From: a virus
Taxonomy: Duplodnaviria; Heunggongvirae; Uroviricota; Caudoviricetes
Reading direction: 5' to 3' (one strand)
Length of the DNA: 64,000 nt
IMG/VR virus record: IMGVR_UViG_2681813318_000003
The notes below the pieces were generated by a model. It did not search any database and was not told where the DNA came from. It worked only from the letters and a program-made list of their open reading frames with translations. This document shows, in pieces, positions 44,119 through 45,240 of the stretch (positions are counted from its first letter, which is position 1; every line of letters starts with the position of its first letter). A program made the position numbers and the translations under genes.

Positions 44119-44196
44119 CACAGCGTTGAGCGGTCTGGTTTATGTTAGCGGAGTCTTAATCTGGGTGATTAAAAGGCCAAACCGCTCAACGCTGTG
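44119..44196 (-). other. long hairpin (16-bp perfect stem CACAGCGTTGAGCGGT / ACCGCTCAACGCTGTG, 46-nt loop) abutting the tRNA-Ser 3' end
   Basis: Perfect inverted repeat read directly; no U-run follows. Confidence 0.6.
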
Positions 44197-44198
44197 TC

Positions 44199-44285
44199 TG
44201 GCGGAGAGTAATGGAATCGAACCATCATCGCTTGCGCAATGGGACGGTTTTCAAGACCGCTTGAGCACCATGCTCCCTACTCTCC
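44199..44285 (-). tRNA. tRNA-Ser (anticodon UGA)
   Basis: Hand-folded cloverleaf: acceptor GGAGAGT/ACTCTCC, anticodon loop CTTGAAA, long variable arm, T-loop GGTTCGATTCC, encoded CCA. Confidence 0.75.
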
Positions 44286-44385
44286 GGCCGTTGTGGTGGC
44301 CGGTACTGAACTCCGACACAGGGTTGTAGCAAACCCCGCAAAGCGCGCACTACTGTAGTTGCGGCACATCAGCCTGTGCATTCAT

Positions 44386-44604
44386 CACAACGGTAAGATC
44401 ACTACCTTTCGACCAGTCATTGTGCACATGAACGACGATTAACCGTAATGATATTATCGTTGTGTTGTGAAGCCAGATGCTTATCTTCTGGTTGCTTCAA
44501 AGAGCTGCACTTCCTCACAACGGTAAGAGCACTGGTCTGACTCTATCGATTTACGGCCTTGTGGGTCAGTATCGCCGATTCGCCCAATGCTCTTACCTGT
44601 TGTG
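44386..44604 (-). other. structured non-coding region with two CACAACGGTAAGA...GTTGTG hairpins
   Basis: 44516-44531 pairs with 44588-44604 (16 bp, one bulge); 44386-44400 pairs partly with 44458-44464; I could not fold a tRNA here. Confidence 0.5.
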
Positions 44605-44605
44605 T

Positions 44606-44681
44606 TGGTGCCGGTTAACGGACTTGAACCGCTGGCCATTCGCTTACAAAGCGACTGCTCTACCAACTGAGCTAAACCGGC
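44606..44681 (-). tRNA. tRNA-Thr (anticodon UGU)
   Basis: Acceptor GCCGGTT/AACCGGC, D-arm GCTCAGTTGGTAGAGC, anticodon loop TTTGTAA, T-loop TTCAAGT, encoded CCA. Confidence 0.8.
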
Positions 44682-44685
44682 AATT

Positions 44686-44772
44686 TGGTGGGGAGTGATG
44701 GAGTCGAACCACCCGAGTCGCCATGACAGTAGATTTACAGTCTACACCGCTACCTCTACGGACTAACTCCCC
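44686..44772 (-). tRNA. tRNA-Tyr (anticodon GUA)
   Basis: Acceptor GGGGAGT/ACTCCCC, anticodon stem-loop GTAGA-CTGTAAA-TCTAC, long variable arm, T-loop GGTTCGACTCC, CCA. Confidence 0.75.
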
Positions 44773-44777
44773 TAAAT

Positions 44778-44852
44778 TGGCGATGGTGGGTGGATTCGAA
44801 CCACCGACCAGTTGGTTAACAGCCAACTGCTCTACCGCTGAGCTACACCATC
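44778..44852 (-). tRNA. tRNA-Asn (anticodon GUU)
   Basis: Clean cloverleaf: GATGGTG-TA-GCTC-AGCGGTA-GAGC-A-GTTGG-CTGTTAA-CCAAC-...-GGTGG-TTCGAAT-CCACC-CACCATC-G-CCA. Confidence 0.85.
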
Positions 44853-45118
44853 AATTCAGCACTGCCAGTATTTATTACTCAACAGTGCCAATCGCGACGG
44901 TTTAGTTTCTGCCAGGAAACGCACCGCTACTTGCACTTTTCGTTAGTGCCAGACGCTTTCGACTTCGCTCAATAGTAGAAGGCAAAATCTTTAAGTAGAT
45001 GATGTTTCTGAGGACAGCACCTACTTTGTAATTTATACAATGTGATGTATGGAATCATTTGTTGTGAAAACAGGCACCAATGGCAACAGTGGTTAAACCT
45101 ACACAACAATCCCGTCTT

Positions 45119-45240
45119 CACAACGTTGAGGCCACTACTCCGATTGAATGTTTGCCCAACATGTTACATATCAACGCTCGCCGGTATCTCTGTGAATAGA
45201 ACCTTAGAATTGATAAAAATGTAATGGCCTCAACGTTGTG
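45119..45240. repeat. 15-bp perfect inverted repeat CACAACGTTGAGGCC / GGCCTCAACGTTGTG enclosing 92 nt
   Basis: Same CACAAC...GTTGTG end pattern as the hairpins next to the tRNAs. Confidence 0.6.

Follow-up and report, generated by a model that had tools for sequence, protein, structure and literature searches.

The window analysed here is a 64,000-nucleotide (nt) stretch (IMG/VR record IMGVR_UViG_2681813318_000003) of an SSU5-like phage-plasmid. On its minus strand it carries a 1.3-kb island in which four transfer RNA (tRNA) genes, for Ser, Thr, Tyr, and Asn, are interleaved with long inverted repeats. The whole island is a succession of structured modules, which along the tRNA strand are H5, H4, S2, tRNA-Asn, tRNA-Tyr, tRNA-Thr, H3, S1, H2, block B, tRNA-Ser, H1, and a terminator (Table 1). 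All four tRNAs that a sequence-only reading of this DNA had noticed were found by ARAGORN and Rfam, and the four inverted repeats that it had placed between 44119 and 45240 (H1 to H4) are there, with arms of 14 to 23 nt that are 83 to 95% complementary; a fifth member, H5, lies outside that range. As the same reading had pointed out, two of the hairpins abut tRNA 3' ends, H3 beginning 1 nt past the CCA of tRNA-Thr and H1 2 nt past that of tRNA-Ser. Escherichia phages CMS-2020a and Cyrano share 96 to 98% identity with the region 43900-45500, stretches of which are also matched by P1, P7, and D6.

Table 1. Elements of the tRNA-hairpin island and its terminator, in ascending window coordinates
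Feature	Coordinates	Strand	Sequence and structure	Method
Terminator-like hairpin	44024-44043	both	AAAGGGGCCGAAGCCCCUUU; T-runs on each strand	terminator scan
H1, type A	44119-44196	minus	CACAGCGUUGAGCGGUUUGG; 20-21 pairs; last element before the terminator	
tRNA-Ser (TGA)	44199-44285	minus	CCA end 2 nt from H1	ARAGORN, Rfam
Block B, structured leader of tRNA-Ser	44286-44385	minus	ends CCACCACAACGGCC directly before the tRNA	
H2, type B stem	44386-44464	minus	conserved top GAUyGAUCGUCGU..UGUGCACAA..CUGsUCGAAAG	inverted-repeat search, folding
S1 module	44464-44521	minus	9-bp stem GUUGUGA(GG)AAG/CUUCACAAC around core CAACCAGAAGAUAAGCAUCUGGC	
H3, type B	44516-44604	minus	CACAAC-A-GGUAAGAGCAUUGG; 20 pairs, bulged A	
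tRNA-Thr (TGT)	44606-44681	minus	CCA end 1 nt from H3	ARAGORN, Rfam
tRNA-Tyr (GTA)	44686-44772	minus	missing in Cyrano	ARAGORN, Rfam
tRNA-Asn (GTT)	44778-44852	minus		ARAGORN, Rfam
S2, reverse polarity	45061-45124	minus	GUUGUGAAGACGGG...CCUGUUUUCACAAC; shares GUUGUG with the H4 3' arm	
H4, type A	45119-45240	minus	CACAACGUUGAGGCC...; 20-23 pairs, branched 82-nt top	
H5	45311-45401	minus	base GUAACAGAAUGGGCGG; 25 pairs; first island member in the direction of transcription	

The H hairpins, 78 to 122 nt in total, have stems of 18 to 25 pairs built on a common plan: a 6-base pair (bp) base CACAAC/GUUGUG, then a 5-bp block, and then a 7-bp block, NNNNAUU/AGUNNNN, in which a given position holds U.G or C-G. 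The 5-bp block reads GUUGA/UCAAC in type A and GGUAA/UUACC, with or without a bulged A, in type B, and the two subfamilies that had been recognized by eye are borne out, with CACARC-GTTGAG in H1 and H4 and CACAAC-(A)GGTAAG in H2 and H3. So is the sharing of CACA(A/G)C ends, since CACARC-N60-90-GYTGTG occurs three times in the 64 kb, always in the island, against 0.54 expected. The tops in the window measure 38 to 82 nt and in most cases form two small hairpins. S1 and S2 have the opposite polarity (GUUGUG...CACAAC) and have their first six bases in common with the preceding H hairpin. Folding of the minus strand gave z-scores against shuffled sequences of -9.7, -2.8, -5.9, and -6.7 for H1 to H4 (0 of 200 shuffles equally stable), and hairpins of at least 18 pairs number about 0.7 per shuffled 64 kb versus three within the 1.3-kb island. 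The lack of U-runs reported for these hairpins also holds: a terminator scan found sites at 44024-44043 and 45883-45896 only, none at the hairpins, whose flanks read AUAGAC, AUGAAU, AGGAAG, and AAGACG. We therefore rejected their identity as intrinsic terminators, as no U-run follows any stem.

Of 47 distinct stems taken from all loci, 39 are predicted to be more stable on the sense than on the antisense strand (mean -31.7 versus -27.4 kcal/mol, Wilcoxon p = 2e-6), and G.U positions outnumber A.C positions 79 to 32, the A.C count being raised by the bulged A. At stem pair 18-29, the 23 stems have U.G (13), C-G (8), or U-A (2). Owing to its G.U pairs the tRNA-sense strand folds better, so the folded species is, judging from sequence, the RNA of the tRNA strand, and the helix would form in the transcript, on the transcribed strand. 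The tRNAs are on the strand of the hairpins in all 210 cases from 77 related loci.

Comparison with related genomes, which the sequence-only reading had proposed, revealed that the hairpin family is conserved in several phage groups. Members occur among the tRNAs of the C1-controlled ban operon of P1, P7, and D6, in Klebsiella SSU5-like phages, in the tRNA region of the rV5-like phage DE16, in 9NA-like phages (intergenic between head and neck genes, where tRNAs are absent), in a lambdoid phage between the antiterminator Q and the holin S, and in other temperate phages between a CI-like repressor and early genes; one is also carried by the Yersinia massiliensis chromosome. The elements are always co-oriented with tRNAs or downstream genes and located in untranslated leaders or tRNA islands. 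H5 is conserved in Cyrano, CMS-2020a, Klebsiella SSU5-like phages, and SSU5, and the H3-S1-H2 stretch was found in 692 of 5426 complete Escherichia coli genomes, nearly always plasmid-borne, and it carries no annotation there. A scan of viral contigs with the 3' arm pattern gave 140 matches, 91 of which belong to a hairpin with 15 or more pairs. In a scan of genome contigs, for which an arm pattern of 14 nt was used, one of the 121 matches listed was real (that of Y. massiliensis) and the others were due to chance, so that it is hardly informative on genome-wide distribution. The hairpin overlaps the CA of tRNA-Asn in the Klebsiella relatives, and in one viral contig the end of a hairpin lies directly at the 5' end of a tRNA-Arg.

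Close relatives differ from each other by blocks that end within the hairpins. Cyrano lacks 44286-44599 as well as tRNA-Tyr, a single hairpin replaces H3-S1-H2 in one CMS-2020a isolate, and in some P1-like phages the hairpin-S1 unit is repeated in tandem at a distance of 196 nt, the copies bearing different tops. Type B tops could not be aligned, even those of P1 with those of P7; they vary in length from 7 to 130 nt, a loop of 7 nt being all that one D6 member has. That related loci break and recombine at the hairpins, and that their tops differ, fits the expectation that only the stem matters.

We assign a probability of roughly 0.55 to the hairpins being ribonuclease III (RNase III) processing sites that free the tRNAs and small hairpin RNAs. 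Among the three readings that the sequence-only reading had offered, the evidence favours this one, with cleavage as its predicted step; stable small RNAs are suggested for the H2 type and S1, while tRNA-derived elements have a counterpart only in some relatives. Processing is favoured because the elements fold as RNA of the tRNA strand, have stems of 18 to 25 bp, are positioned after tRNA 3' ends, and show kinship to the lambda N-leader hairpin and to the 23S ribosomal RNA (rRNA) stem. An ATP-dependent DNA ligase gene and small open reading frames (ORFs) lie upstream of the island, on the minus strand like the island itself, so the island looks like the untranslated tail of a ligase operon. 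Under the proposed scheme, 44020-45630 would be that tail, forming a single RNA with four tRNAs and seven long hairpins and ending, probably, at the bidirectional terminator. Host RNase III would cut both strands of the H stems near the junction of the 6-bp base and the 5-bp block, with predicted cuts at ACC^GUUGUG (3' arm) and CACAAC(A)GG^ (5' arm). The upstream tRNA would thereby be separated from the downstream RNA with a trailer of about 8 to 10 nt (about ten for tRNA-Thr), to be trimmed to CCA by exonucleases, and the hairpin top would be freed as a small RNA of 55 to 110 nt. The S hairpins would act likewise in the opposite polarity, resembling the 23S rRNA leader-trailer stem.

What is described for the enzyme is consistent with such a scheme. 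Near-perfect helices of at least 20 pairs are RNase III substrates in E. coli, the RNase III valley accommodates about 22 bp, its paired cuts lie a median of 58 nt apart in vivo, and bulges are common beside the cut (PMC6212723). The near-perfect helix of about two turns, or some 20 to 22 bp, that RNase III substrates require is present in H1 to H5. The type A arms contain the palindrome AACGUU (WSSW) at bp 4-9, with two central G/C pairs between A/U, which may correspond to the preference of RNase III reported for such pairs (PMC6212723). Type B has A-CGG-U with the bulged A.

The lambda N-leader hairpin and the early and late R sites of T7 are known RNase III cleavage sites. The former folds with a 16-bp base stem below a branched top, and the island hairpins resemble the lambda and T7 sites in having a long base stem, a branched or looped top, a location in an untranslated stretch between functional RNAs, and several related copies per genome. 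The N-leader hairpin of the P22-like phage epsilon34 is the positional homologue of that of lambda, has GCUUUGGG/CACCAAAG in common with it, and carries the S1 core in its top, just before the N ribosome-binding site. The island hairpins differ from the lambda and T7 sites in that they flank tRNAs instead of mRNAs, their stem is conserved across unrelated phage families, their tops are hypervariable and exchangeable, and their cleavage is a prediction.

The other resemblance is to the leader-trailer stem of 23S rRNA. Within the whole rrnB operon, the best match to the 3' arm and flank of H3 (CUUACCGUUGUGAGG) is the 23S leader (CUUCGGGUUGUGAGG, 12 of 15 positions; the next best has 10 of 15); each of the three mismatches has its compensating change on the opposite arm, and both helices bulge a purine at the corresponding position. 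The 23S leader reads CUUCGG-GUUGUGA followed by the 5' end of the rRNA, and its 3' end is followed by the trailer ACAAC-(G)-CCGAAG; the corresponding parts of H3 are CUUACC-GUUGUG-AGG (3' arm and flank) and ACAAC-(A)-GGUAAG (5' arm). Both have the duplex GUUGUGA/UUACAAC, a bulged purine, and a 6-bp block next to it. The H helix is nevertheless closed on the other side, so that its flanks, and not the RNA it encloses, match the mature 23S ends, and only the S hairpins have the polarity of the rRNA. RNase III cleaves pre-23S rRNA at -7 or -3 and at +7, within the leader-trailer duplex (PMC8708148), and an analogous cleavage of H3 would place its cuts at the positions given above. We take this resemblance of the type B stem base as no more than suggestive of RNase III processing. 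Comparisons of type C stems with the 16S RNase III site and of type A stems with rrn gave no support.

Several points weigh against the processing reading. The 23S resemblance is limited to type B, as the best rrn matches of type A and type C arms fall in other places; the island and rrnB share no more exact k-mers than chance would give, and the rough p of 1e-2 to 1e-3 for the type B match belongs to a comparison picked after the fact. RNase III of E. coli demands little sequence, and this enzyme alone does not account for how strictly unrelated phages conserve CACAAC-(A)GGUAAG, to which frequent recombinational exchange at the stems, or else a second partner, may add. The existence of conserved tops (the H2 type with its palindromic apex, the S1 core, and the T-arm-like hairpins) suggests that the excised RNAs or other partners matter. 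Covariation is also to be read with caution: among the 23 distinct stems, 96.3% of the cells over 20 positions are paired and 15 of the 20 pairs show changes on both sides, but most members were collected by demanding a hairpin, which biases these pairing statistics upward, and templated (quasipalindrome) mutation can give paired changes without selection. Two checks are free of the collection bias. The orthologous H4 of E. coli and Klebsiella phages shows compensatory changes (GGCC/GGCC to GACC/GGUC and AUUAC/GUAGU to ACUGG/CCAGU), and a search by the conserved H2 top alone recovered four other long stems around that top. Finally, our literature searches found no description of these hairpins; the match retrieved for SSU5 was an alarmone hydrolase, unrelated to them.

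The alternative that survives best, although we consider it unlikely, is that the hairpins are genes for trans-acting stable small RNAs, in which the stem would be a scaffold or handle and the variable top the working part. The tops could then mimic parts of tRNAs, serve as decoys for a tRNA-targeting host defence or RNA-binding protein, or dimerise, and would be kin to the species 1 and 2 RNAs of T4. The H2-type top speaks for this, being common to SSU5-like, rV5-like, 9NA-like, and other phages (four groups) on different stems, with a 6-nt palindrome at its apex (GUGCAC, GCGCGC, or GGGCCC) that is kept via paired changes unable to pair within one hairpin; so do the T-arm-like hairpins, which are enriched in the tops of P1-type members and present in 6 of 41 distinct tops against 0.03 expected, and the S1 core, which is nearly invariant among very different phages. 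A parallel exists in T4, where small structured non-tRNA RNAs (rnaC and rnaD, species 1 and 2) lie among the tRNA genes on the same strand and rnaC also has a T arm together with long hairpins, but the T4 RNAs have no sequence similarity to the island elements, end in an acceptor-like stem, and lack the conserved 20-bp stem. A working top also fits badly with the type B tops, which cannot be aligned even between P1 and P7 and shrink to 7 nt in D6. The complementarity of the H1 to H5 tops to the rest of the window amounts to chance matches of 10 to 13 nt, for which reason antisense targets inside the window were discarded, and no Rfam family matches them, YrlA and tRNA included.

A combination of both ideas can be conceived, a modular small-RNA expression system in which the 23S-mimicking stem would recruit RNase III to excise any top, like the stem of a eukaryotic primary microRNA, with tops exchanged as cassettes and acting in trans. 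We find this elaboration rather more doubtful, and the same applies to its corollary that the cassette tops (T-arm mimics, a kissing-loop module, and unrelated sequences) would be decoys against tRNA-targeting defences or dimerising regulators. More generally, functions of their own for the excised RNAs seem to us a tentative prospect on which we would not count.

The apex of H2 (44405-44444 in the window, with counterparts in four related loci) has its palindrome flanked by U and AA, one variant reading GUGCCC; it resembles a kissing-loop dimerisation site, or it could mark the centre of a DNA palindrome. The T-arm-like hairpins GGGUUCGAAUCCC, AGAGUUCGACUCU, and GUCUGUUCGAUUCAGAC are in the tops of relatives (five loci, that of P1 among them), and none is found among the five tops of the window.

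The hairpins might instead be passive insulators of a long untranslated RNA, blocking 3' exonucleases, 5'-end-dependent RNase E, and the loading of Rho without any RNase III cut, so that the tRNAs are protected while read-through to the downstream genes is allowed. The constant presence of the elements in long untranslated stretches (the P1 ban leader, the lambdoid late leader between Q and holin, the leaders after CI-like genes, and the tRNA islands) agrees with this idea, as does the organization of the 1.3 kb as a chain of structured modules. Even so, we judge it distinctly improbable, since helices of at least 20 pairs are RNase III substrates (PMC6212723) and escaping the enzyme would need special features, the conservation of the stem-base sequence across unrelated phages is unexplained by passive structure, and the boxA-like GCUCUUU of S1, the sole hint of Nus antitermination, is not conserved.

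Very unlikely, in our view, is an explanation at the DNA level, according to which these would be palindromes similar to miniature inverted-repeat transposable elements (MITEs), attC-type sites, or linkers for cassette exchange, with RNA structure as a by-product. The breakpoints of presence/absence and of swaps do fall at hairpins (Cyrano, CMS-2020a, and the tandem units of P1-like phages), the same stems carry unrelated tops, the ends are loosely like RYYYAAC...GTTRRRY, and a tyrosine recombinase gene lies 3.3 kb from the island. This gene (39710-40813), the sole recombinase within 28 kb, has a weak generic integrase match and is not an integron integrase according to NCBIfam. Correia and ERIC elements and integron attC sites are likewise imperfect palindromes of 60 to 150 bp with conserved ends and variable centres, and Correia elements are cleaved by RNase III once transcribed; unlike them, the island has no dispersed copies, target duplications, or integron integrase and is fixed in its orientation to transcription. 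As for MITEs, inverted repeats are present, but as five diverged copies within 1.3 of the 64 kb, in one orientation, with flanks devoid of duplications and without near-identical copies elsewhere; as for attC, the ends match at 6 of 7 and 5 of 7 positions by eye, and cassette ORFs are lacking. Furthermore, the orientation is fixed relative to transcription at every locus, the G.U strand asymmetry is not expected of duplex DNA sites, and members also occur in virulent rV5-like and 9NA-like phages.

Least of all do we expect the hairpins to be decaying tRNA genes whose leader and trailer pair by chance, without present function: T-arm-like hairpins occur in several tops, a P1 member can be read as an acceptor-like stem of 7 bp with a T arm and a terminal CCU, and ARAGORN at a 70% threshold gives weak cloverleaves in 5 of 41 members, but the stems covary, the leader-trailer stem is conserved whereas the tRNA-like part is not (the opposite of what decay predicts), the window tops lack a T arm, and, as the sequence-only reading had already concluded, the hairpins do not fold as tRNAs (no ARAGORN call at thresholds from the default, 100%, down to 80%, and no Rfam tRNA match with E up to 5-10).

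Other known RNAs were equally discarded. A covariance search with Rfam 15 of the window, P1, and the Klebsiella loci gave no family above noise, the weak matches to precursor microRNAs reflecting the long hairpins. The suggestion of a retron found no backing, neither a reverse transcriptase nor an Rfam match being present. Y RNA (YrlA, RF02553, with a Ro-binding stem and a tRNA-like domain) has no match in the window, and its weak match in P1 (25.6 bits versus a threshold of 69) overlaps true tRNAs. TIGR-Tas arrays were weighed as an analogy only, since their 36-nt units and the Tas protein are absent here.

Phage tRNA genes have been studied as countermeasures to host defences and as tools for codon usage; to our knowledge, little has been described, T4 apart, of how they are expressed from long transcripts. 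SSU5-like phage-plasmids are common in clinical E. coli and Klebsiella. Neither Rfam nor genome annotation includes the family described here, which is best grouped with the processing stems of RNase III type in polycistronic phage RNAs and is unusual in its modular design. It offers a concrete candidate for a processing signal common to P1, SSU5-like phage-plasmids, and rV5-like, 9NA-like, and lambdoid phages. Its definition would improve phage annotation, the P1 region being now described as two doubtful protein genes, and would account for the mosaicism of the islands. A portable RNase III handle for the expression of tRNAs or small RNAs would follow, and the tops, if they were functional, would represent a new class of phage small RNAs.

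Annotation places the two P1 genes in question, upl and plp (NC_005856, 69472-70041), opposite the tRNA strand, where they span two family hairpins, the S1 module, and part of trnT, so that they probably do not encode real proteins.

The S1 motif consists of RUGAAKUGCAG, ten variable bases, and CAACCAGAAGAUAAGCAUCUGGC, enclosed by a 9-bp stem that covaries (GUUGUGA, GUUGUGG, GAUGCGAUG). It was seen in the window and in six related loci, with 97% identity in P1/P7, and no Rfam family matches it. S2 has a covarying orthologue in a related locus. A boxA/Nus antitermination signal in S1 (GCUCUUUA core) was considered and rejected, since the GCUCUUU of the window and P1 is replaced by CUCGUUG, AUCUUAG, UUCUCAG, and UCCAUCG in relatives. 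A small ORF starting at the AUG of S1 was also rejected, as the window has AGG at that site.

Other long hairpins follow tRNAs in DE16. They are rich in A+U and unrelated in sequence to the family, and begin exactly at the 3' ends of tRNA-Ser, tRNA-Asn, and tRNA-Gly (844-959, 1154-1293, and 1894-1990 in the reverse-complement coordinates of the DE16 locus, L007). A hairpin directly 3' of a phage tRNA may be a general arrangement.

Between block B and P1 the identity is 92%. In CMS-2020a SCU-107 the block occurs as a diverged variant that keeps the first small hairpin (loop GRCUGA) and the end CCGGAGWUCAGUACCGG. The block B segment CUACAACCCUGUGUC could pair with the H1 5' arm across tRNA-Ser over 16 pairs.

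Just upstream of the island, at 45455-45630 on the minus strand, there are weak, sub-threshold Rfam matches similar to transfer-messenger RNA. Similar sub-threshold matches appear in P1 (locus L002, 3903-4070), in and beside a region annotated as dicF-like, and all of them are probably noise.

On the other side of the terminator there is a gene of the YafO toxin family with an overlapping upstream ORF of 182 amino acids, and a glutaredoxin gene and an ORF of 445 amino acids are close by (segment coordinates 41136-41552, 41543-42091, 42219-42467, and 42682-44019). The 445-amino-acid ORF has no Pfam match and ends at the bidirectional terminator. This toxin/glutaredoxin segment substitutes for a different segment found at the same place in Cyrano.

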